The notes under the pieces were generated by a model. It made no database searches. It had not been told where the DNA came from and saw only the letters and a list, made by a program, of their open reading frames with translations. The translations under genes were made by a program, and so were the position numbers. 64,000 bases of DNA from an uncultured Candidatus Saccharibacteria bacterium (GTDB taxonomy: Bacteria > Patescibacteriota > Dojkabacteria > J137), in NCBI GenBank assembly GCA_965230975.1, contig OZ246402.1, forward strand, positions 101,771 through 165,770, read 5' to 3'. Below, piece after piece: positions 30,475 through 47,012 of this stretch. Every line of letters starts with the position of its first letter. Position 1 is the stretch's first letter.

Positions 30475-32694
30475 ATGGCTCGGAAAAAACAACATATCAC
30501 TTACGATAGTAAAGAAACCCATACAATAGTTGGTCTTTTAAGCTTTTTGTTTGGATTATTCTTTCTAGTAACTCTTTTTACAAATAGCGAAGCACAAACA
30601 AATTTATTTTCTCAAGTAAAAAACCTGTTTGGTAACTCAACTGCACTAACGGCAATATTTTTAATAACAACAGGGTTACACTTTCTTGGTGCAAAATGGA
30701 GCTTTACAAAAACAAGAAGTCTTTTGGGACAATTTGCATTAGTATTTTTAATACCTGCAGTAATGACAGCATTCTCAAACTCTCCAAGAGAACTCGCCCG
30801 AATTGCCGGTAATGATACTTTAGGTGGCGAAGTTGGTTATTTAATAGTAAATACTGTATTAGGAGACGTTATTCCAACTCAACCAGCAACAAAATTTATA
30901 CTAATCGCTTTAACTTTAATCGCGTTACCTGTAGCACTCTCTTTATCTTTAAGCGAATTATTTGATACATTAGTTAAAATAATTTCTTGGATTAGTGGCT
31001 TGTTTAAATCTAAAGAATCTGAAGAAGACAATTCATCAATTCCCGAAAAAGCATCTACCTTTGGGGATTTTAACAAATTTAGAAAACAAACCGCTCCTTC
31101 AAAGCAAATAGAGGAAAAATCTCACGAAAAACCTGAAGAGATGACTTCATTTAAAAAAATTAGAACAGCAGAATCTGAAGTAGCAAACCAAATTAAAGAA
31201 GGCAAGCTTGGAGATGATGGATTAAGGCAAGATACACTAAAATACCCTAACTGGGTATTACCTAACCTCAGCCTATTAATCCCTTACAAAAAAGGTATTT
31301 CTAAAGAACCTGCAATTGAGCAAAATGCAAAAATTATAGAACAAACATTGGAAAGCTTTGATATTTTAGCCAAAGTTGAAGAATCCTATATTGGCCCATC
31401 TATTATTCAATATGCTTTAAATATTGGTATGGGAATCAATGTAAATAGAATTACAAACCTAAGTGCAAATTTAGCTTTAGCATTAGGTGTAGATTCTAAA
31501 GCGATTAGAATTGACTCTATTCCAGAAACATCGTACTTGGGTATAGAAATTCCAAGGACAAAAAGAGACATGGTTAGAATTAAAGAGCTAATGGAATCTA
31601 GCGAAATGATGGCTACAAAAGCAGAATTGCCTGTTCCAATTGGTAAAGATATAGATGGAAGTGCTGTAATTGCAGATATCAAAAAAATGCCCCATTTATT
31701 AATAGCCGGAGCAACCGGTTCTGGTAAATCTGTATTAACAAACTCGTTTATTACATCTCTATTGTTAAGAAGAACACCAGACGAAGTTAAATTTATTTTG
31801 GTAGATCCAAAACAGGTAGAACTGTCTGACTATAACGGAATTCCGCACTTACTAACCCCTGTTATTACGGACATGGACCAGGTTGTAAATGCTTTAAAAT
31901 GGGCAGTTGGAGAAATGGATAGAAGATACACAAACTTAGCTCATGAACAGGTTAGAAATATAGAAGGCTACAATCAAAAAAAGGGTTTTGCAGCAATGCC
32001 CTACATTGTCATTGTTATTGACGAAATGGCAGATATGATGATGACAGCTAACCGCGTTGAAGCAGAAAATGCAATTGTTAGACTTGCTCAAAAAGCTAGA
32101 GCTGTGGGAATCCACTTGATATTAGCTACCCAAAGACCTTCTGTAAATGTTATTACTGGAATTATTAAAGCGAACATTCCAGGGCGTGTTGCCATGAGTG
32201 TTACTAGTAGTACAGACTCTAGAGTCATTTTAGATAGAATTGGTGCAGAAAGCCTAATGGGCCGAGGAGACTTGTTATACAAAGCCCCAGATAGTCCTAA
32301 ATCCAAAAGACTTCAAGGTACAAATATTGAACAAGATGAAGTTATTAGAATTGTAGACTTTATCAAATCTCAAGCTCCAGAAGTTGAATATATGACAGAA
32401 ATTGTAGAAAAACATGTATTGCCTGGCGAACAAGCAGATGGAATTATAGCTGGAGTTTCTGAAGATAATATGTTTGAACAATCCGTTAGAATAGTAGTTC
32501 AAAGTGGAAAAGGCTCATCATCTTACTTACAAAGAAGATTAAATATTGGCTTTAATAGAGCTGCAAGACTACTAGAAGAGCTAGAAGAAGCAGGTGTAGT
32601 TGGACCAGCTAATGGGAGTAAACCAAGAGAAGTATTAATTACAGATGCAGATGCATTTTTACAAAGCTTAAGAGGTGGAAGTATAACAGAATAA
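30475..32694 (+). CDS. ftsK: DNA translocase FtsK/SpoIIIE
   Basis: N-terminal 4 TM helices and a linker. Walker A LLIAGATGSGKSV, Walker B VIVIDEMAD, and gamma-domain wHTH SSSYLQRRLNIGFNRAARLLEELEEAGVVGP. Confidence 0.9.
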   Translation: MARKKQHITYDSKETHTIVGLLSFLFGLFFLVTLFTNSEAQTNLFSQVKNLFGNSTALTAIFLITTGLHFLGAKWSFTKTRSLLGQFALVFLIPAVMTAFSNSPRELARIAGNDTLGGEVGYLIVNTVLGDVIPTQPATKFILIALTLIALPVALSLSLSELFDTLVKIISWISGLFKSKESEEDNSSIPEKASTFGDFNKFRKQTAPSKQIEEKSHEKPEEMTSFKKIRTAESEVANQIKEGKLGDDGLRQDTLKYPNWVLPNLSLLIPYKKGISKEPAIEQNAKIIEQTLESFDILAKVEESYIGPSIIQYALNIGMGINVNRITNLSANLALALGVDSKAIRIDSIPETSYLGIEIPRTKRDMVRIKELMESSEMMATKAELPVPIGKDIDGSAVIADIKKMPHLLIAGATGSGKSVLTNSFITSLLLRRTPDEVKFILVDPKQVELSDYNGIPHLLTPVITDMDQVVNALKWAVGEMDRRYTNLAHEQVRNIEGYNQKKGFAAMPYIVIVIDEMADMMMTANRVEAENAIVRLAQKARAVGIHLILATQRPSVNVITGIIKANIPGRVAMSVTSSTDSRVILDRIGAESLMGRGDLLYKAPDSPKSKRLQGTNIEQDEVIRIVDFIKSQAPEVEYMTEIVEKHVLPGEQADGIIAGVSEDNMFEQSVRIVVQSGKGSSSYLQRRLNIGFNRAARLLEELEEAGVVGPANGSKPREVLITDADAFLQSLRGGSITE

Positions 32695-32711: not shown

Positions 32712-32960
32712 TCATTGAAGGTTTGTAGGTTCTATACCTGTTGCATCAACATAAGTTGGGTCAATGCCACTATTTTCAATCTTTTTATTTTCTAAAAAAG
32801 TCTTCACATTTTCTGGGAATATTGTACTTCTTGGCATTGGAATTACAGTTTGATTAACAGTAGACCTGAGTCCCGATGAAATTTGCAATACCTCCCACCC
32901 CACTATTAAAACAAGTATTAAAACACCTGTACCTACCAAATACATAAAAAGCTTGTTCAT
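32712..32960 (-). CDS. small membrane-anchored protein (third gene of pilN/pilO-like operon)
   Basis: 82 aa with a single N-terminal TM helix. Start overlaps the upstream stop (ATGA). Confidence 0.35.
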   Translation of the reverse strand: MNKLFMYLVGTGVLILVLIVGWEVLQISSGLRSTVNQTVIPMPRSTIFPENVKTFLENKKIENSGIDPTYVDATGIEPTNLQ

Positions 32961-33589
32961 TCTGTTAAGTCGTTAAAATAATAGATTATCATCTTTAAAT
33001 TAAGAATATATTCAACATTTGAGGAACCATCACTCTGTGGCACAACAGTTCTGTTTACAGATGCATTATCTATGTTTAAAAGAAGCGCAGATTTTTCTGT
33101 GTCTGAAATAAACTGTAAAACGCTATCTTTAGATCCAATACCTTGGATAGTTAAATACATTGGCACTACACTCTCACCTCCTGCAACTATTGCGACTTTA
33201 TCTATCAACTCTCTATTATCAGGGTCAAAGTTAAAGCTGTTTATAAATACATTTCTTTTGGCTGCCATAGCATTTAAGATATTAATTGTTTTTTCTTGCT
33301 CTTCTCCATTTGGCATAACATTATTAAAATAGTCTACTAGTTCTTTTTTATCATCTTGTTCTAAGGTTAATGATTTTAAATCTTGTAGCTTCTTTTCTAA
33401 ACTTGATATAACTTTATCTCTTTTTGAATTATCTTCTGATTGAGCACCTAAAGAGCTAATTGCAGGAACAACCCCTACTATAGACATAACCACAACAAAC
33501 AAGACAGTTACCCCTGCGGTAAAATAACTTTTGTTTTTTCCTGTAGCAAGAATTTGATTAAGTCTCTCCTGCCAGTTTATTTTGTTCAT
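32957..33589 (-). CDS. PilO-like type IV pilus assembly protein (putative)
   Basis: 210 aa with an N-terminal TM helix and a coiled coil (KLQDLKSLTLEQDDKK). Position downstream of a PilN-like gene, overlapping by 4 nt. Confidence 0.4.
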   Translation of the reverse strand: MNKINWQERLNQILATGKNKSYFTAGVTVLFVVVMSIVGVVPAISSLGAQSEDNSKRDKVISSLEKKLQDLKSLTLEQDDKKELVDYFNNVMPNGEEQEKTINILNAMAAKRNVFINSFNFDPDNRELIDKVAIVAGGESVVPMYLTIQGIGSKDSVLQFISDTEKSALLLNIDNASVNRTVVPQSDGSSNVEYILNLKMIIYYFNDLTE

Positions 33590-34149
33590 ATTTGATCTCT
33601 TTTAGTATCTACAATTTTTGCAACTAGAATATAGCTACCTTTGTTTTGTAAAACCTCTTTTTCACTTAAAGATAGGTCACTTACTGTTACTTGAGTAAAA
33701 CTCTTAGATGACTTTAGTGCTGTTTCTAATACTTTTATATCTGCTAAATCTTCGTACCCCAAAACGCTAACTTGGTCCCCTTTTATTGTTACAACTATTT
33801 CTGAGGATTCATTTTGAATATAAGAAAATATCTCTTGAATTGAATTACTATACTCTTTTGCTTCGTTCCAAACTAATACGTAACTATCTGACTTTGCCTG
33901 AAGCTGTCTAAATTTTGGCTCTAAATCTTGTGCATAGAAATTTAGCTCTTGAGTTAACCGTGCTATTTCTCTATCCTTGTTTTTTGCAGTTGTATCTACA
34001 ATAACTTTAAATACAAATGTAGAAGCAACAATAAGTTCTGTAATTAAGACTACTATTCTAGCCTTCCCAATTAACCAGTCATAAACCCTATCCCACGCGG
34101 TTGCCGGTGGTGTTAATGGTTTTAATAAATTAAAATTCCTCTTTTGCAT
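33586..34149 (-). CDS. PilN-like type IV pilus assembly protein (putative)
   Basis: N-terminal NFNLLKP (the INLLP motif of PilN), then a TM helix and a periplasmic domain. Confidence 0.45.
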   Translation of the reverse strand: MQKRNFNLLKPLTPPATAWDRVYDWLIGKARIVVLITELIVASTFVFKVIVDTTAKNKDREIARLTQELNFYAQDLEPKFRQLQAKSDSYVLVWNEAKEYSNSIQEIFSYIQNESSEIVVTIKGDQVSVLGYEDLADIKVLETALKSSKSFTQVTVSDLSLSEKEVLQNKGSYILVAKIVDTKRDQI

Positions 34150-35397: not shown

Positions 35398-36810
35398 ATG
35401 AAAATTAAAGACGAAAAACAGCTTTGGAAAACTGCCTTAGCACAAATTGAAATAAAAATAGATGCGCCAACTACATTTAGAACTTTTTTCCAAGAAACAA
35501 AACTCATATCTATTGATGGAAATACTGCAAGAATAGGTGTTCCAAATCCATACACCGCAGAGTGGTTAAAAAATAAATACGAAAGAATGATAAAAGACAC
35601 ACTTAGCTATGTTTTTGGAGAAACCTTAAATCCTGTTTTTGAAGTTTTGCAAAGAGTTGATTCTGAACCAGAACCGATTTCCGAAATAATGAATACAGAA
35701 AAACAACCCCTTTTATCTATGGAAAATGGTGTTATGGGAAATGTATTAGATTTGGTTAGAAAAGCTGGCCTTAATCCAAAATACACCATTTCAAATTATG
35801 TAGTTGGTAATTACAATATGATGGCACATGCAGCCGCAATTGGGGTTATTAACAATCCTGGAACTGCTTACAATCCATTATTTATTCATGGAAAAACTGG
35901 GCTTGGTAAAACTCATTTAGCACAAGCAATTGCGCGCTCAATAATAGAGAGAGATCCCTCAAAAAGGATTTTGTATACATCATCTGAGGGTTTTATGAAT
36001 GATATGGTTAAAGGTATTAAAAGTGGCCAAAGTGATAGAAACAGATCAAAGTACAGATCAATAGATTTATTGATCGTTGATGATATGCAGTTAATTTCAA
36101 AATGGGTTCATACTCAAGAGGAATTTTTTAATACTTTCAATGAATTATTTAATAATGGTAAGCAGATTATCCTTATTGCAGATAGAAGACCTGAAGAGAT
36201 TCAAAATATAGAAGCAAGGTTAAAAACAAGAATGCAAGGAGGTATGGTTGTAGATATTCAAAGCCCTGATTACGAAATTAGATTGGCAATTTTAGAAAAG
36301 AAGGCAGAACTTGGTGGAGTTAATTTAAAACCTCATGTTATAGAATTTATTGCCAGGTCAATTACCGACAATGTAAGAGAACTTGAAGGTGCTTTACAAA
36401 AAGTTTCTTTGTTTAATCAAATGAAGCCCAATGGAGATTTAACTTTAGAAGAGGTTGCTCACATGATTGGTAAAGATATTTCTTCAAAACGAGAACAGGT
36501 AAAAGTTCCGCAGGTTTTAAAAGAGGTGGGAAAAACTTTTAATGTTAGTGTTAAAGAGCTTAAGGGACCAAGAAGAACTAAAGATTTGGCACTAGCAAGG
36601 CAAGTTGCCATGTACATTTTAAGAGAGGAATTCAACTATAAGCTTGAAGAGGTTGCCAACTTTTTAAATCGAGAAGATCACACTACAGTGATTCATGCTA
36701 TTGATAAAGTTAAAAGCAAAATGATGTTGCAGGATGGTTTTAATAGACAGGTTGCAAAATTAATAACTACAATACAAGATAGTGCTACTGTAACACAGGA
36801 TATGGAATAG
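35398..36810 (+). CDS. dnaA: chromosomal replication initiator protein DnaA
   Basis: Walker A GKTGLGKTHLAQAI, Walker B LLIVDDMQ, sensor motifs, and a C-terminal DNA-binding domain LALARQVAMYILRE. Confidence 0.95.
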   Translation: MKIKDEKQLWKTALAQIEIKIDAPTTFRTFFQETKLISIDGNTARIGVPNPYTAEWLKNKYERMIKDTLSYVFGETLNPVFEVLQRVDSEPEPISEIMNTEKQPLLSMENGVMGNVLDLVRKAGLNPKYTISNYVVGNYNMMAHAAAIGVINNPGTAYNPLFIHGKTGLGKTHLAQAIARSIIERDPSKRILYTSSEGFMNDMVKGIKSGQSDRNRSKYRSIDLLIVDDMQLISKWVHTQEEFFNTFNELFNNGKQIILIADRRPEEIQNIEARLKTRMQGGMVVDIQSPDYEIRLAILEKKAELGGVNLKPHVIEFIARSITDNVRELEGALQKVSLFNQMKPNGDLTLEEVAHMIGKDISSKREQVKVPQVLKEVGKTFNVSVKELKGPRRTKDLALARQVAMYILREEFNYKLEEVANFLNREDHTTVIHAIDKVKSKMMLQDGFNRQVAKLITTIQDSATVTQDME

Positions 36811-37377: not shown

Positions 37378-37501
37378 TTATAGGATAACTTAAATATTTA
37401 ATTATACTTTATTGTGTTCTTTGTTGCTAATTTGTATTGCGGCACAATGTTTTTCTTATCTGCAAGTGCTAATATCCTTGTATAAATATTAATCAAGTTT
37501 T

Positions 37502-37981
37502 ATGTTTTTTATTTGGGGATGGGGTCATAGAAAAAACAAAGATTTAGGCTCTGTAAATAAAGCTATTTGTTCTAACTGTTCTAATATTACAAAGTTTAGA
37601 ATGCTAGATCATTCTGAGTGGTTTACCTTCTTTTTTATTCCTATTATTCCGTATTCAAAAAAGAAGTTTGTTTATTGTCCCGTTTGTGATTATGCTATTG
37701 AAATAGACGAAGATAACGCTTTAGAGTTAAAGCAGATTGCAAATCTTAATAATGCTTACGATAAAGGTGACTTAAGTGAAGATGAATACGAGAAGTTAAA
37801 CAATAAGCTTAATAGTATTTTAGAAATTGGCACCGAGACTTTAAAATCGGATGTTGTTTTTAACAAAGTGAGTATAGTACAAGAACCAGAAACAGGCTTA
37901 ACTAAATTCTTAAAAAGCAAAGAGTTAAAAATATTACTCTACTCTGTGTTTGTTATTGCAGTGTTGTATTTGGTGTTTTAG
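37502..37981 (+). CDS. zinc-ribbon plus SHOCT-domain protein with a C-terminal TM helix
   Basis: CSNCSN...CPVCDY forms a Cys4 ribbon. LKQIANLNNAYDKGDLSEDEYEKLNNKL is the SHOCT motif. The C-terminal helix is ILLYSVFVIAVLYLVF. Confidence 0.5.
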   Translation: MFFIWGWGHRKNKDLGSVNKAICSNCSNITKFRMLDHSEWFTFFFIPIIPYSKKKFVYCPVCDYAIEIDEDNALELKQIANLNNAYDKGDLSEDEYEKLNNKLNSILEIGTETLKSDVVFNKVSIVQEPETGLTKFLKSKELKILLYSVFVIAVLYLVF

Positions 37982-38075: not shown

Positions 38076-38594
38076 TTATTTACTACCTTTAAAAACTTTT
38101 CCATCTATACTATCTACCCACTCTTCAAGTACATCTTTAGGAAATTTAATATTTATTAAGTGATCTTCTGGAATGGGTGTAAATCCAGAGAGAAGTTCAC
38201 CTAAAGAATATTCCTTATACAAATCCCTAAGTTTGTAATAAAAGAAAGATCTTTCTGGCTCTAAAGCATCTGATAATCTGTGATAAAAAGCCTTATTGTT
38301 TAAAATAAAGTCAAATCCTGTGTATCTCACTTTCTTAAATAAACCAGTCCGATAATTCTTACTGATCCATTCCGCTGGCTTTCGATCATCTATAACTTTA
38401 AAAAGATTTGAGTCGTATTCTTTAGTTACAAAATAATCATATGTAATTACAACATCGTCTAATCTGAAATCCATAATGTTATCATCTAGAATTTCATATT
38501 GCTTTTTTCCTTTAGCATCTTCTGAAATTCCAATAACCAAGTACTTTTTGCCTTTGGTTATAAAGTCTTTGTCTGTTAAGCTTTCCAAGATCAT
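38076..38594 (-). CDS. hypothetical protein; candidate immunity protein for the upstream RHS toxin
   Basis: 172-aa ORF that starts 6 nt after the RHS stop on the same strand. Soluble, no motif. Its position is the canonical one for an Rhs immunity gene. Confidence 0.45.
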   Translation of the reverse strand: MILESLTDKDFITKGKKYLVIGISEDAKGKKQYEILDDNIMDFRLDDVVITYDYFVTKEYDSNLFKVIDDRKPAEWISKNYRTGLFKKVRYTGFDFILNNKAFYHRLSDALEPERSFFYYKLRDLYKEYSLGELLSGFTPIPEDHLINIKFPKDVLEEWVDSIDGKVFKGSK

Positions 38595-38599
38595 ATATT

Positions 38600-41500
38600 T
38601 TATCTAATAATTAAGCTACTCATGCTAGTGATTTTAATCTGCTTACTTATTGGTAATATTGTGCTTTGCAAATAGTGTACTGTATATTTATTACCTCCTG
38701 CAACTCGAACATATTCAACTTTATTCCAAAGTGAGCTAAAGAGACGTGGGTCAGCAAGTTTTTTCCCTCCTGAACTAAATATAATATTTCCTTTTCCTAC
38801 AGCCTCTTCCATAACTAGTTTTTCTGTCAGGTTTGATGGAGAAGACGCATATTTAGGAATGCCCTTTGCAACAACTTTTGAAGCAATGGAGCTAATTCCA
38901 TAGCCTATTGCAGCGGTTACCCCCCCTGTTACACCACCTACAACTACAGCTTGAGCTAAACCTTCGACTGAAAATTGTTTTTCTTGAACTGCAACTTGTG
39001 CAGTATAGATAATAGCACCCGTCGCTGCACCAACTGCAATACCTACTCCAATTGCGCACACTACTGTCGCTAAACAAGCTGCCCCTGCTAACGCACCTGC
39101 CCCTACCGTTAATGCCGTAGACACAGCTGCACCTATTATTTCCCACTTATTTTCTTTGAAGAAATTACCTATCTCTTCCCAGAACATTCCACTAAAATCA
39201 TTCCCATTCAGCGGATCTACTGGATACACATAATCATTCTGTGTTCCACCTTCTACAGGGTCAACTTGCAAGAATCTACCTAATTCTGGAACATAAACTC
39301 TTGCACCCATTTGAATAAAATCAATATCAAACCTAACCTCTGTATCCCTTAAAGCACTACCACCAAAACCATAATCTGTAGTTGCAGCAATTTGAACCCC
39401 AAAAGGATCGTACCTAAAAATACTACCTGTATTCTTAGCAAGCACATTACCAGTTGAACTCATAATACTGTATTCAGAAACATCTGCTTTAACGGTCAAC
39501 CTTAAACCTGGTAAAGAAACATACCTTTCAATAATTGTACCTGCACCATTCTTTAAAACATCTGCAGAACTAGAACTACTACTAAACCCATAAACCTTAA
39601 CACTCTCACCCGAATTAAAATTACTGTTAATAACTCTACCTAAAACATCTCGAGTATATTGAATCCTACTACCCTCTTGAGAAACCGCTACATTTTGATC
39701 TGAAACATCATATTCAAAACTCAAATTACCCATCTCTATTGTATTACCGTGAGAATCATATTGAATCCCAGCAAACTTATTATTAGACGCTTGTATTAAT
39801 TTATCTGCAGCATCGTAACAATACTCGTTAGTAACAGTCACACCCTCAATAGTCAAAGAATCTGATGTCCTATTAAAATTCTTGTTTGAATTTTGAAAAG
39901 AACAATTAGTTGCCTGATTATAGTTATATGCAAATTGCCTATCTCCATAATCTGCTGCAACTAACCTATCTGCTTTATCAAAAGTATAGCTCTGATTATA
40001 AACTTGAGAATCTTGTGTAAACTTTTGAGCTAAAGTCAAACCTGATTGAGATTTAGTCAATTCTTCTGAAATAATTGTTCCATCACTTTGCCTCCAAGTA
40101 TATTTAATAGGCCTTTCTAAAGAATCTCTTGTAGTCCCTAAGTAAGCCAATTGTCCAGCCTCTGGATAAGTAATTGTAGAAACTCTACCTAAAGAATCGT
40201 AACTTACATTTGCATAAACAACTCCATTGTAAAGTTTAGATGTAACTTGAGAATAATCATTGTAAGTCCAAGACTCTGTACCGACTTCAGAAACCTTTTG
40301 AGTTAACCTATTTTGATTATTGTAAGTATAATTTGAAACACTTCCTAATGCATCTGTGTATTTAACTAAATTACCTAAGTAATCGTATTCAGAAATACTT
40401 ACAGTAGAACCATCCGTTACTAATCTTTTTAGTGGATTTCCACCATATGCAAAGTTATTAGTAACAGTCTTACCAGTCTTTTCATTGTTACTTGCAATAA
40501 CCTTGCTTTCTACTCTTCCTCTTGAATCATAATTTGTACAGTTCCATGCCTCGTCATTAATTTTACTCGCAACAACCCTACCAGAAGCATCATAAACAAC
40601 TTGTGTGCTTCTACCTACTTGTAAACCATCTCCATCTGGGTCTACCTCGGTTTTACCCTTTGCAAAACCAGCTTGAGAAACGGGGTCTGATGCAGGTGTA
40701 CATGGATTATCTACACTTTCTGTTGCTCCATAATATGAATATTTAGTAACAGATCCACCTGCTGAAGTTTTTGAAAGTTGCCTAAAGTAACCACTACCTT
40801 GAGGCTCATAACTTGCACTACTTTGATAATTTAAACCATTTGGATCTAAGACTTTATTTGCTACAAGACCGTATGCTGGGTCTTGATAGTTTGTTTTAGT
40901 TTCAATATTGCCGAGTTGTTGATCATAAATAACGTTTGTTGTAGCCAAGTTGTAACCAGGTGCTAAGTTGAGCCATTTATTAGTTTCTGTAATACCAGGG
41001 CCAGAAATTGTTGCATTAATAACAGGTGTAGTACCAAAACTTGCAAAATCTAATCTTACTCTATAAACCTTGCCTGCTTCTAAGGCAATTGAACCAGTTT
41101 TTTCAACACTTGTTGCAGATCTATTTGCCCAATTATCAATAATCAGTTGATCGTTAACAAATAATCTTGCACCGTCTGTATGTTGAAGTTTAAAGTTATA
41201 GGTTCCATTTTGAGCAATGCTTAATTTCCCTGTTAAAGAGAACCCTACTCCATCCATTCCCGCCTCTTTCGTAATGGGGAATGCTTGGTTTCTATAATCA
41301 AAATTCATTACTGCTTTGTCGTTATTGATTCCAAACTTGTGTAATTTTGGACTTCCGAATAACGTTGCTGTTGTTGGAGTATTACTTTTAACTTGATAAT
41401 AAGCAACTGCTGGACCTTGTAACCCCTCATCATATCTAGTTTCTGTTTTTGGAACTTGATTGACATAAGTAGATAATGGTTTTCTATCTGTACCAAACCA

Positions 41501-44500
41501 ACTTGCAGGTGCTGGGCCATAACTTTCTAAAGGTCTATCGTCTGAATCATAAATTGTAGTGCTTTTTAAACCTGTAGGACCAGTTGTACTTAAAATAATA
41601 TCTTTTGCACTATCCCATTCAGTTGTTGTACACAAAGCTATGTTGTCGCAAATCTTTGTAGTTCTATACTTAGAATCAAATTCTAAATATTTTGAATAAC
41701 CTACAGGTTCAGGTATTCCAACTAAATGTTGTTTAGAAGCTCTTGGGTAATATTCTAAGGTATGCTGTAAATTGGAATTCCCCGTATTACTTGGAAAGTA
41801 AACTTTTGTAGCTCTACCTAAAGCATCGTATTCAAAGTTGTAGCTAGCACCTTGTTCGTTTGCATTTCTTAAACCAGCCATTATGCTATCAATCATTCCT
41901 GTGTCTCTTAAAGAAGCTATTCTTCCATCTGTGTAGTAACCATACTCAAAAGATGCATCACCCGGGTAGTCAATTTTGTACAAATTGCCTTTATAGTAAT
42001 TAAACTTTGTCCATTTACCATCTGTTGTATAGAATGCACATAAGTGACCTGTTGGAATAGCATAGTCACCGCTAGTTGCGCTACACTCTGCTTCGCCTTG
42101 ATAGTAAAGTTTTCCAAACCTTGAGGAATCTACACCATCTATAATTCTTCTTAACCTTGTAAACCCACCTACATTTGCATACTCGTACTTTAATCCTGCT
42201 GGATTTTTATCATCATATGCAGTACTGGTTTCTTTTAATTTAAACTGCCCCGAGTTATCTAGTACATCATAAATATAAGTTGTGCCAGCTGTATCTGTAA
42301 AGGTATACGTACCATCATTATTTTTAACTAACCAACCATCCTCATTTACAGGTGATTTGTAACCTCCATTGTTGTAAGTGTATAAAGATTCTGTTCCATC
42401 TGTAGATATCATTACAACATCTTGATTTGCTTTTACTTTTAATGATTCAAAAGGGATAGAGCCATTAGAATCTAATGTTAAGTTCCATCCACTTGGCAAA
42501 GCTTTTACTTCTGGAATTAAATATTTACTTTCAATAACACCATTTAAACTAGGTCCAGTCCATTTTAAGGCTACTGATGCACCACCAGTTTTTTCGTACA
42601 TATCTACTACAATTTTGTTTGGTTGACCTGCCGTTAATTGAACACTGCCAGACCAAGCCTCAGTGTACCCATGGTCTGTCCAATTTTGAGCGATAATATT
42701 TCCATTTAAAGTAAGTCTGGAACCATCATCTGAACCAACTCCAAATGTATAATTGCCAGTAGTGGGAGCTATCACATAACCTTCATATCTAACTAAAAAG
42801 TTATCAACAGGGCCACCTACAACTGGTGAATACCCATCCCAATTATAGTTAATTTGAGGTTCATTTCTTAGTAAGAATCTAGTTGTATTTACATTAAAAT
42901 CATGGGTGCCATTGTCGTAATAATACTTACCTGTTAAACCCGTATTATTACTTAATGGAACAGGTGCTGTTCTAAAATATTCTGAAGGGACTACTTTTTG
43001 TGTACCATCTGGCATTTGAACATAAAGAATCGCTGTTGCTCCACCTCCAAACTCTACCATCTCCATTTTAATTGGCCATAGTTGACCCTCTGTAAGTGCT
43101 ACAGTATTGCCCATCCACTTTGTTCCGCAACATGGTGCATCTAAAATTACTGTGTTATTTCCATAAACTTTTATATTGTCATCTCCCATTACTCCAAATT
43201 TATAGTTACCTGTTGTTGGAGCAACAAAGTAACCTGACCATTGAGCCGAGAAATTATCTACACTTACTATTCCTGGGTAAGGAGACCCAGTTAGCCAATA
43301 ATTATCAATATTTGCATTTATAGTTGAATAGATTGGATCTCCGCTAAAAGTAGTGTTATTCCAATATTTAGCAGATAAACCCTCTCTGGTTATTGTTGGG
43401 GTATTGTATTCTAAGCCGATTCCAATATTCCCACCCAATGCATTCATTGAATGCGAGCTATTTGTTGTATATGCATTACCTGTTGCTAAGTTAACAGCAA
43501 AAGGACCTGCTTCATCGTAAGCTTGTGTAGGGTCTTTTCCTGCTCTAAAGTCCGTTTTGAAAGTTGCACTAAAAGACGGGCTTCCATGTTGATAATAATC
43601 GTCTCTAACGTATACACTCCACCTATATGTCTGACCATTTTGTAAAATACCATCTACCACAGTCATTGTTGGTGATGTAGTAAAACCACTTCTTTGTACA
43701 ATAGTATTATTGCTATCCCACAAAATAAATTCGTGGGTTAAGGTGTCTCCATCAGCATCATTTGCAGGGTTAGCTCTTAGGTTAACAGTTGTTGTTGTTA
43801 CTACAGAATTATCTGCAGGTGCACTTAAAGTAGCGTTATTATTTGGAATGTTGTTATAGGCCAAATTTAGTCTTGCATTGGCTGCATCAAAAGCTTTAAA
43901 TGTATCATATCTGTTTTCCTCTCCCCAAATAATTAACCAACCTCCATAAACTTTATTATCTGACAACCATTGGATTAAAGGTTTCATATCAATGTAACCG
44001 GAGGTTGTCATACGAGCACTCATTATAGGAGACCACCCAACGCAGTTAAAACTTATGCAACTTGCCCATGCAACGTTAATTTGTGCATTTGTATTGTAAA
44101 AACCGTTCCATCGATATGATTTGTAGCCCATTTGCAAATATAAATTTGCTCCTAAAACTTGCTTCCCAATTATTTCATCGTAATTAAATCTAACTACACT
44201 TCTCCAAGATTTTTGACCACCATCATTCAATCCACCTGTATTCATATCGCAATAAACATAATCACATGCATATCCATTACTTTTGTAAGAATAATATGCC
44301 CTAGATCCATTTTCTACTGTTTTTGTTGGGTAAACTGCAGGGTCTATTGATATGGGGAAGTTTTCTGGTTTTAATGATTTTAGCCAGTCTGCATTAAGAC
44401 TTACTTTAACTGTATTACCCTCAATTGTTTGACTTATTACATCTTCTGTAACTGGCCCAATGTTAGTAGCAATAATATATAGTGGTTCAATTACGAAGAC

Positions 44501-45334
44501 TTCATTACCAACTTTAATATTTAAAGCGCCTTTTTCTTCCGTTGAATATGATAATTCACCTCCAACAACTTCAAATTCAAAGTTTGGATTTTTTATGTAC
44601 TTATTTAATACAATATATTCTTTAATATAGTCATCATGAAATTCGTAAACCAAATCTACATTTTCCCAAGCATTTCTATAAATTACTGCACCTTCTAATT
44701 CTTCAGGTTTTACATTATTTATATTTTTGGGTTTGAAAGTTAGTTCTTGACCAGCTACATTAATCGTTATTCCATTAGAAAGTTTTTTATATTTAACATC
44801 TAATTTGCTTGAGTCTATCTCTAAATCTTCTTTGTTCTTTTTTACATTGTTTTTTATCTCTTTAAATGAATCATTCTCTTTTGTAAATCTATCTGTCAAA
44901 CTTTGCTCTACAATATTTAAACCTTCTTGTGTAGTATATTTTTTTGTTTTCTCATCTATATTTTTTGTATTTGAAGTATTTTTCTTTAGGTTTTCTATTT
45001 CTTCATTTTTTATAGACTTTAACTCTTGTTTATTATCGTTTGCAGTTGTACCACTTAACTTATCTGAATAATCAACCCCACTACCTAAAGGATATGGTGA
45101 TTCTTGTACTTTTAATGGGTCTATCCTATCTGCTTTCTTTATTTTGGAGTCTTGATAATTCTTATTCTCTTTGATTGCTTTCGAATTTAATCGAACAAAC
45201 TCAGATTCAGATACTTTCTTGCGTAACTCAATTATATTTTGTGCATTAATGGCTATTGGCTGAAATGTTTGAAATATTACTAAGAGGCACAGCAAGACAC
45301 CTACCCTACTTAAGTGTTTTAGGATTATATCCAT
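38600..45334 (-). CDS. secreted RHS/YD-repeat polymorphic toxin (2244 aa) with three PA14 domains and a variable C-terminal domain
   Basis: Signal peptide [34 protein letters not shown]14 hallmarks [26 protein letters not shown] and [14 protein letters not shown]. More than 15 YD repeats ([28 protein letters not shown], and others). The Rhs core ends [38 protein letters not shown]. The ~190-aa C-terminal tail has glycine-zipper hydrophobic stretches. Confidence 0.85.
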
Positions 45335-45570
45335 ATAATAAAGAGTAAAAAATATAGATTTGGTTTACAGCTATATAAATTTACCCTTTTATACCAAAAT
45401 ATTTTTTACTCCGCATTGTGCCGTGGCGCAAATTTTGAGGTTTTTTTCAAAAAATTCGTTGTGTTTAGAAATTAAATTTAATTATTACATTGAAATACTT
45501 GGTGGTAAAGCTTTATCCCAAGTAAAAAACATCACAGGTAATGTTTGTTACTATTGTCTAATATCATAAA

Positions 45571-45866: not shown

Positions 45867-47012
45867 ATGGAAATCAAATTAAACCATACAAACTTAGCAA
45901 AGTCTTTACAATATACAAGTAGAGCTGTAAGTGCCAAACCAAACATACCAGTATTGAGTAATGTACTTTTAGATGTAACTAAAAATGGATTAAAACTTTC
46001 TGCAACTAATTTAGACATGGGGATAAACGTGTGGATACCTGGGTTGGTAGATCACGAGGGAAAGATTACTGTATCAGCAAAATTCATTTCTGACTTTGTA
46101 AGTGCATCTAGTGGAGACAATGTAGAGTTAAAATTAGATGGAAGTGTCGTAACTGTTAAAACAGATAAATCAAAAGCAAATTTTAATACAATATTAGCAA
46201 ATGAATTTCCGGTACTTCCAGAAATTTCCGAAACACCTCTCTTTAAAATCTCGGCAAAAGAATTTATGACATCTATGGATAAAGTCATATTTTCCTGCTC
46301 TACCGATATGAGCATTGGTAAGATTCAACAAAGTGGGGTTTTATTTGAACTTAATAAAGAAGATTCAGAAGTAATTTTTGTAGGTTTAGACGGTTTTAGA
46401 CTTTCTAAAAGAAATGCTAAGGTAAAAGATTTAGCAGAAACATTGCCTACAGAACAAATTATAGTGCCTGCAAAATACTTGGCTGAAGTTCAAAAGATTG
46501 CATCAGATTACGTAGATTTAGATGAAATTGAAGTTTATTTAAGTAAAAATAACTCTCAAATAATATTCAAATTTGAAGAGATTGAATTTAGCATTAGATT
46601 AATAGAAGGTCCTTACCCTGAATACAAAAGAATATTACCAGACTCTGCATCATTTACTTTTGAGGTAAAAAGAGGTGATTTAGAGAATGCTATTAAAGTT
46701 GTTAATACATTTGCAAGAAGTAACTTAGGTTACAAGACTTTGTTTGATTTAGATTTAGAAAACTCTGCTATTAAATTAAAATCAATTGTTGCAGAGGTTG
46801 GTGAAAATGAATCTATTGTTAATGTTACAGAAGTTCAGGCCGATACAGACTTAAATACATCTTACAACTTAAAGTTTATTCAAGATGTTGTTTCTCATAT
46901 TAAAGGAGATACTATTATTTTCGAAACAAAAGGCCCTTTGGCTGCGTCAGTATTTAAAGATAAATCAGATGCAAGGTTTGTACATTTGCTAATGCCTTTA
47001 AGAAGAGAATAA
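45867..47012 (+). CDS. dnaN: DNA polymerase III beta subunit (sliding clamp)
   Basis: 381 aa. N-terminus MEIKLNHTNLAKSLQYTSRAVSAKPNIPVLSNVLLDV, with a three-domain length. Confidence 0.9.
   Translation: MEIKLNHTNLAKSLQYTSRAVSAKPNIPVLSNVLLDVTKNGLKLSATNLDMGINVWIPGLVDHEGKITVSAKFISDFVSASSGDNVELKLDGSVVTVKTDKSKANFNTILANEFPVLPEISETPLFKISAKEFMTSMDKVIFSCSTDMSIGKIQQSGVLFELNKEDSEVIFVGLDGFRLSKRNAKVKDLAETLPTEQIIVPAKYLAEVQKIASDYVDLDEIEVYLSKNNSQIIFKFEEIEFSIRLIEGPYPEYKRILPDSASFTFEVKRGDLENAIKVVNTFARSNLGYKTLFDLDLENSAIKLKSIVAEVGENESIVNVTEVQADTDLNTSYNLKFIQDVVSHIKGDTIIFETKGPLAASVFKDKSDARFVHLLMPLRRE

Follow-up and report, generated by a model that had tools for sequence, protein, structure and literature searches.

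Does the small gene that directly follows a giant RHS toxin gene encode the immunity protein of that toxin? The question arises for a 172-aa ORF at 38076-38594 on the minus strand of the window (the whole 64-kb stretch of DNA analyzed here), which is preceded on the same strand by a 2244-aa RHS ORF at 38600..45334. A sequence-only reading of this DNA had proposed the ORF as a candidate for the cognate immunity gene, and the analysis presented here supports that view: the ORF is very probably the immunity partner of the upstream RHS toxin in a pair of the Rhs-CT/RhsI type. The assignment is built from the position of the ORF, a tail/ORF neighborhood conserved in other loci, co-divergence of the two proteins, complementarity of charge, and a confident predicted fold. 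Judging by the database searches, the tail and ORF families are both undescribed and very rare.

The RHS protein and its variable tail

Pfam and NCBIfam matches, together with hydropathy, identify the upstream gene as an RHS polymorphic toxin gene. Its product is laid out as a signal-peptide-like N-terminus, three PA14 stretches, a GLEYA domain, RHS repeats, an Rhs-associated core and a variable tail, with Pfam matches to PA14 (E = 1.6e-57), GLEYA (3e-12) and RHS_repeat (PF05593; 1.4e-10). The N-terminus has a hydrophobic core with a Kyte-Doolittle (KD) value of 2.18 and, judged by hydropathy only, resembles a Sec signal peptide; a Pfam search of the protein revealed no PAAR, VgrG, LXG or WXG domain. 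The Rhs-associated core at residues ~1975-2050 (39185..39412, minus strand) is recognized by TIGR03696 (Rhs_assc_core, E = 6.6e-11), the match covering residues 30-105 of the 299-aa C-terminal piece of the protein. The core ends at about residue 2050 in a DPxG-type boundary (DPVEGG...). Rhs proteins diverge abruptly past a DPxGL-type boundary, after which the toxic Rhs-CT follows (PMC3150448).

The 194-aa tail consists of two parts, a Gly/Ala-rich hydrophobic segment followed by a basic C-terminal part. The former, a glycine-zipper-like pre-toxin segment delimited from sequence and hydropathy, spans about tail residues 14-105 (~90 aa; 38870..39145, minus strand), with a highest 19-residue KD mean (KD19) of 2.32 and faint similarity (E~0.08) to Romo1 and a phage holin family. 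The DNA encoding it has a local GC content of 0.44, vs ~0.32 overall. The segment is long in the window and in the visible part of a related locus, L011; in another, L005, the linker is shorter and different. The segment may aid entry of the tail into the target membrane; an independent pore-forming activity is another possible role.

The C-terminal domain (77 aa; 38603..38833, minus strand), defined by an alignment of five tails and by tblastn, appears to represent a new family and is basic, with a pI of about 10 (~9.9). In the 96-aa numbering of the alignment, residues N20, L25, E29, A30, G32, G34, D47, P48 and R49 are invariant in all five tails, as are W55, K57, Y60, V71, H72, Q75, Q84 and K86. 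Among these, E29, D47, R49, K57, Y60, H72 and Q75 are candidate active residues. This ~77-aa domain is likely the catalytic toxin. The domain is small, has a high pI and polar invariant residues, and is paired with a soluble acidic protein, features that favor a target in the cytoplasm, probably a nucleic acid.

Searches of the family libraries leave the toxin without relatives of known function. Neither part of the tail has a match in Pfam, NCBIfam, PADLOC or the PDB, and all five tails searched against Pfam and NCBIfam, including the Ntox/Tox-*, HNH and RelE/YoeB-like RNase families, gave nothing relevant. For the 299-aa C-terminal piece, PHROGs matches were weak and confined to the Rhs-core region and the Gly-rich segment, and a PDB profile search with the tail domain returned E values of at least 0.35. 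The sole return of a word-indexed search of 5.8 billion proteins with the tail was a 100%-identical fragment (P0002, locus L003). A single-sequence AlphaFold2 model of the tail was unusable (pLDDT 40). A RelE/YoeB-like tail was considered and rejected, the hhalign probability against E. coli YoeB being 0.2%.

Locus L003, which comes from a metagenome assembly (Logan SRR12404957) of the same organism, differs from the window in the toxin gene itself. Through a single T->A substitution at window 39498 (L003 position 691), RHS codon 1946 reads TAG there instead of TTG (Leu), which truncates the RHS protein just ahead of the core end and the tail, while the downstream ORF is intact. Either a natural variant that has lost the toxin but kept its immunity gene, or a sequencing or assembly error, could account for this; the variant would agree with a toxin that is dispensable and an immunity gene that is retained.

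A new gene family directly behind the toxin

The candidate immunity gene (RhsI-like) runs from 38594 to 38076 on the minus strand, with an ATG start; in the ORF listing, its product begins MILESLTDKDFITKGKKYLV. On the minus strand, the RHS/ORF junction reads ...AGA TAA AATAT ATG ATC TTG GAA..., so that the RHS stop codon TAA occupies 38602-38600, the spacer AATAT is 5 nt long, and the ORF start codon lies at 38594-38592. The A of this ATG is the sixth base past the RHS stop. The 5-nt spacing suggests that the two genes are co-transcribed and that their translation is coupled; scans for promoters and terminators were uninformative in DNA so rich in AT. The product is acidic (pI 5.5), and its top 19-residue KD mean is only 0.46, for which reason it is predicted to be a soluble, cytosolic protein with neither a transmembrane segment nor a signal peptide. 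The sequence-only reading had described a soluble 172-aa ORF placed 6 nt after the RHS stop on the same strand, and its coordinates, length, sequence and placement are all correct; what it did not give is that this strand is the minus strand.

The lack of a recognizable family, also part of that description, is borne out. The ORF has no significant match in Pfam, NCBIfam, PADLOC or PHROGs, and its best match among PDB sequences has an E value of 0.3, which is not significant. The known immunity families (Pfam Imm*, SUKH/SMI1_KNR4, CdiI) and solved immunity folds likewise showed no significant similarity to it in sequence or fold. A word-indexed search of 5.8 billion proteins returned the ORF itself only, and when phmmer was run exhaustively against 1.84 billion cluster representatives, only seven relatives emerged (E values from 9e-37 to 4.5e-4). 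The family is thus defined by eight cluster representatives, P0001 and P0003-P0009. A profile search for the family added nothing to the phmmer relatives, all eight members gave zero matches in Pfam and NCBIfam, and the best E value in a PDB profile search was 0.21.

Two length classes are apparent among the relatives. P0003-P0005 are 170-171 aa long and share 39-47% identity with the ORF (E about 1e-35 to 1e-37), and P0007-P0009 are a shorter form of 133-153 aa (E 2e-6 to 4.5e-4). P0006, at 308 aa, carries some 135 additional C-terminal residues (~135 aa). This extension, residues ~175-308 of the protein encoded at L010 388-1314, is beta-rich, absent from the other family members, and faintly similar to BsuPI, a proteinase inhibitor (E 0.05); perhaps it represents a second domain, with an immunity or inhibitor function, fused to the first.

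In the alignment, every member of the family shares the start Met and a set of hydrophobic core residues. An AlphaFold2 model computed from the eight-sequence alignment is confident (pLDDT 87.9, pTM 0.83) and predicts a nine-stranded N-terminal beta domain (residues 2-94), helices at residues 95-128 and an extended C-terminal segment. That the ORF is a genuine gene, and no chance reading frame, is attested by the seven protein homologues, the invariant start Met and the confident model. Foldseek found no significant counterpart of the model in the PDB, with a best E value of 0.45 and weak, non-significant partial matches to BAH domains and small ribosomal proteins; against BFVD, the best match (E 0.08) covers just a ~70-residue beta sub-domain. 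If the model is correct, the immunity fold is apparently new.

The toxin tip and the ORF travel together

The sequence-only reading had proposed a search for homologues that co-occur with RHS tails sharing the same C-terminal domain. The contigs of every ORF homologue were fetched and their gene neighborhoods compared, and the outcome is positive: four of the seven homologues (P0004, P0007, P0008 and P0009) lie, in unrelated metagenomic bacteria, directly 3′ of a same-strand gene whose C-terminal end is homologous to the window tail. It is this recurrence that most directly supports the ORF as the cognate immunity gene. The two genes are separated by 4 nt in L011 (P0004) and by 2 nt in both L007 (P0007) and L005/L006 (P0008); in L008 (P0009), the start of the ORF overlaps the stop of the upstream gene. 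By tblastn, the ends of the upstream genes are homologous to the last ~77 aa of the window tail, with E values of 7e-31 (L011), 7e-12 (L008), 6e-10 (L007) and 1e-9 (L005). The C-terminus in L011 reads NLTQQLVLQEAIGKG...LSDPRIISSVWTKMQYV...YTVHYLQN...SKQIKF and that in L005 NIREVLAIKEAQG...LRDPRVITQLWKKMEYV...KVHWLQNKVLPFLQRQYKI, both homologous to the window tail, and the C-termini in L007 and L008 are similar to it as well. One of the four upstream genes also shows the end of an Rhs core: the L005 fragment opens with the Rhs-core end motif YVYPEDPVNEFDLSGE. The pairs of toxin tip and ORF number five including the window, and in the other four the toxin gene is cut by a contig end, so that only part of its architecture is visible.

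The tail and ORF families are adjacent in five of the eight loci. The GC content of the loci ranges from 32 to 54%, vs 32% in the window, so that synteny among close relatives does not suffice to explain the linkage. The two genes form a mobile cassette, as far as the compared neighborhoods tell. The same two subgroups recur in both proteins: long ORFs of ~170 aa are paired with GIPKY...SKQIK tails, and ORFs of 133-153 aa with ...FLQRQYKI tails. Pairwise identities of the tails and of the ORFs are correlated (Spearman 0.77, calculated from 10 non-independent pairs), a correlation that may partly reflect organismal phylogeny and is supportive rather than conclusive.

The remaining three homologues, P0003 (L009), P0005 (L012-14) and P0006 (L010), sit among small ORFs of unknown function on contigs of 1.5-2.6 kb, and no tail-like sequence was found beside them in any frame. 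They look like orphan immunity genes or members of immunity arrays. Such surroundings are typical of orphan immunity genes and immunity arrays (PMC10539506, PMC12247911), and the tail-less homologues do not contradict the immunity assignment. A gene of the uncharacterized DUF7674 family lies directly 3′ of both P0004, which has a tail upstream, and the tail-less P0006 (L011 835-1254, E 6.5e-16; L010 1326-1538, E 8.7e-5). This placement also accords with orphan immunity genes or arrays and suggests that DUF7674 may itself be a component of immunity islands; a literature search found no mention of DUF7674.

Profiles of the ORF and of the tail detected no further loci among genome, metagenome and viral contigs, and tblastn gave no match among plasmids. 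The sequence-only reading had also stated that no further orphan modules follow the ORF. Indeed, the next gene lies on the plus strand and converges on the ORF, and tblastn with the ORF and with the tail revealed no additional copy of either in the 64-kb window.

What else could the ORF be?

A gene so tightly linked to the tail family could also encode an accessory factor of the tail, such as a chaperone, stabilizer or export adaptor acting in the manner of Eag/DUF1795, instead of an inhibitor: tight linkage would be expected of it too, and the hydrophobic Gly-rich segment of the tail might need shielding. The known Rhs chaperones, however, bind N-terminal transmembrane regions and their genes are usually found upstream, whereas the ORF sits downstream and has no Pfam match to any chaperone family. 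The ORF also co-varies with the basic C-terminal domain rather than with the hydrophobic segment (short and different in L005), and free-standing copies that lack a toxin gene are understandable for an immunity protein, not for a chaperone. An accessory role is very unlikely. The same hydrophobic segment raises a different objection, namely that it is itself the toxic part, a pore former, to which the ORF would confer immunity indirectly or not at all. Glycine-zipper pore-forming effectors are known, and the segment has the long Gly/Ala-rich hydrophobic stretch (KD 2.3) and the faint holin/Romo1 similarity (E~0.08) that would suit one. Yet immunity to a pore former is normally conferred by a membrane protein, whereas the ORF product is soluble and acidic, and the ORF family is accompanied from locus to locus by the ~77-aa basic domain rather than by the long zipper; this pore-former reading is very unlikely.

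A further objection is that the ORF is an unrelated gene, housekeeping or hitch-hiking, whose place behind the RHS gene is fortuitous. It could be assigned to no family, and three of its homologues do not adjoin a tail. Against this, two extremely rare families are tightly coupled on the same strand in five of eight loci with GC contents of 32-54%, and neither chance nor housekeeping linkage explains such repeated adjacency. The sequence-only reading had named homologues that never neighbor the tail, or a confident housekeeping assignment, as grounds for abandoning the immunity function; the homologues do adjoin the tail, and the ORF matches no housekeeping family. Mere coincidence of position is scarcely credible, and the cognate immunity gene remains the preferred reading of the ORF.

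Relation to known toxin-immunity systems

The closest frame of reference is the Rhs-CT/RhsI group, exemplified by Dickeya dadantii RhsA/B–RhsI and E. coli RhsA–YibA (PMC3150448). The window locus shares with it the RHS repeats, the Rhs core, a variable tail past a DPxG-type boundary, a small same-strand ORF directly downstream and free-standing immunity copies elsewhere; the RHS/YD repeats and core, the adjacent same-strand ORF and the cassette linkage in other genomes are all present. It differs in that its tail and ORF families are absent from Pfam, NCBIfam and the PDB, in that its RHS protein has no PAAR, VgrG or T6SS link and instead bears a signal-peptide-like N-terminus and PA14/GLEYA lectin-type domains, and in that no orphan CT/immunity cassettes follow and the locus lies between dnaA and dnaN. 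T6SS-delivered Rhs effectors are a poorer match: the window protein has no PAAR/prePAAR or VgrG-linked N-terminus, and its neighbors are dnaN and a Zn-ribbon gene, not Eag or adaptor genes.

In its mode of operation, the system would most resemble the Sec-dependent, T6SS-independent WapA–WapI type of Bacillus subtilis. WapA is a Sec-exported, cell-wall-associated RHS tRNase toxin with an immunity gene downstream (PMC5566331, PMC4436062). Where WapA has an N-terminal export signal in place of a T6SS/T7SS adaptor, the window protein has its signal-peptide-like segment; ahead of the RHS repeats, where WapA has surface-binding domains, it has the three PA14 stretches and GLEYA as putative counterparts; and in both systems a gene for a cytosolic immunity protein, a candidate one in the window, directly follows the C-terminal toxin. 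In contrast to WapA, PA14/GLEYA domains replace the cell-wall-binding repeats, the tail is unrelated to the WapA-CT tRNases, and a long glycine-zipper pre-toxin segment is present. The CdiA-CT/CdiI systems are alike in combining a delivery scaffold, a two-part tail made of an entry segment and a small basic toxin domain, and an acidic immunity gene just downstream; the window system differs in having an RHS shell instead of a CdiA filament and in lacking a VENN motif and CdiB.

Proposed mechanism and significance

We infer that the ORF product binds and neutralizes the tail, and likewise the toxin activity and the export route, as follows. The signal-like N-terminal segment would direct the RHS protein to Sec for export, and the PA14/GLEYA domains could bind glycans on the surface of the target cell. 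The C-terminal tail would be carried within the shell formed by the RHS repeats and released at the Rhs-core boundary (DPVEGG...), the Gly-rich hydrophobic segment helping it to enter or cross the target membrane. Once in the cytoplasm, the conserved basic ~77-aa domain would act, probably on a nucleic acid. In the producer and its siblings, the ORF product, made from the same transcript, would bind the ~77-aa domain one-to-one and block the toxin. The contrast in charge between the acidic, soluble ORF product (pI 5.5) and the basic toxin tip (pI ~10) counts in favor of the immunity assignment.

A more ambitious reading joins these elements into one. The last ~77 aa of the tail and the ORF product would form an undescribed pair in which both folds and the toxin activity are new, not those of a diverged nuclease, deaminase or ADP-ribosyltransferase, and a small-genome, low-GC bacterium would deploy it through a Sec-exported PA14/GLEYA RHS shell, with the glycine zipper giving autonomous membrane entry. 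Taken as a whole, this combination is speculative and rather improbable.

The architecture of the module is textbook and an immunity gene is expected at such a position, so its general significance is modest. The Rhs repertoire nevertheless gains a context-supported toxin/immunity pair, neither half of which is represented in the family libraries now in use, and no solved structure is detectably related to the ORF model. Residues E29, D47, R49, K57, Y60, H72 and Q75, together with the confident model of the candidate immunity protein, offer handles for toxicity and rescue assays, mutagenesis and co-crystallization, and five clean cassettes are usable for experiments. A T6SS-independent, PA14-bearing RHS toxin that probably uses Sec also bears on how bacteria with reduced genomes compete and attack.

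Genomic setting

The module lies between dnaA (35398-36810, plus strand) and dnaN (45867-47012, plus strand), two genes that are usually adjacent. Here they are about 9 kb apart (~9 kb), and the interval holds a 188-aa membrane protein gene (minus strand), a Zn_ribbon_15/SHOCT-like gene recognized by Pfam (37502..37981, plus strand, convergent with the ORF), the ORF and the RHS gene (both minus strand). The 9-kb block gives the appearance of having been inserted between dnaA and dnaN, close to the origin. A search around the RHS block revealed no convincing flanking repeats or att-like sites, and, apart from the bump due to Gly/Ala codons, GC content gives no sign of a foreign cassette. The window contains no rRNA gene. 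The Zn-ribbon and 188-aa neighbors were considered as parts of the module and rejected, as they have no relatives in the other loci. The longest contig that carries the ORF measures 1.19 Mb, and the genome is probably about 1.2 Mb in size.

Further features of the window concern its intergenic DNA and a gene cluster on the far side of dnaA. The motif AATTTG-N6-CGGCACAATG occurs at 37429-37449 (plus strand), about 53-73 nt upstream of the Zn-ribbon/SHOCT gene, and at 45414-45434 (minus strand), about 80-100 nt upstream of the RHS gene; the exact 10-mer CGGCACAATG has these two sites only in the 64-kb window. The motif may serve both genes as a shared operator or promoter element and so co-regulate them. 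At 32712-34149 (minus strand) and 30475-32694 (plus strand), three short, tightly packed or overlapping minus-strand ORFs of 187, 210 and 82 aa adjoin an FtsK gene. Each has an N-terminal hydrophobic segment and no precomputed Pfam match, and together they look like a small membrane-protein operon.
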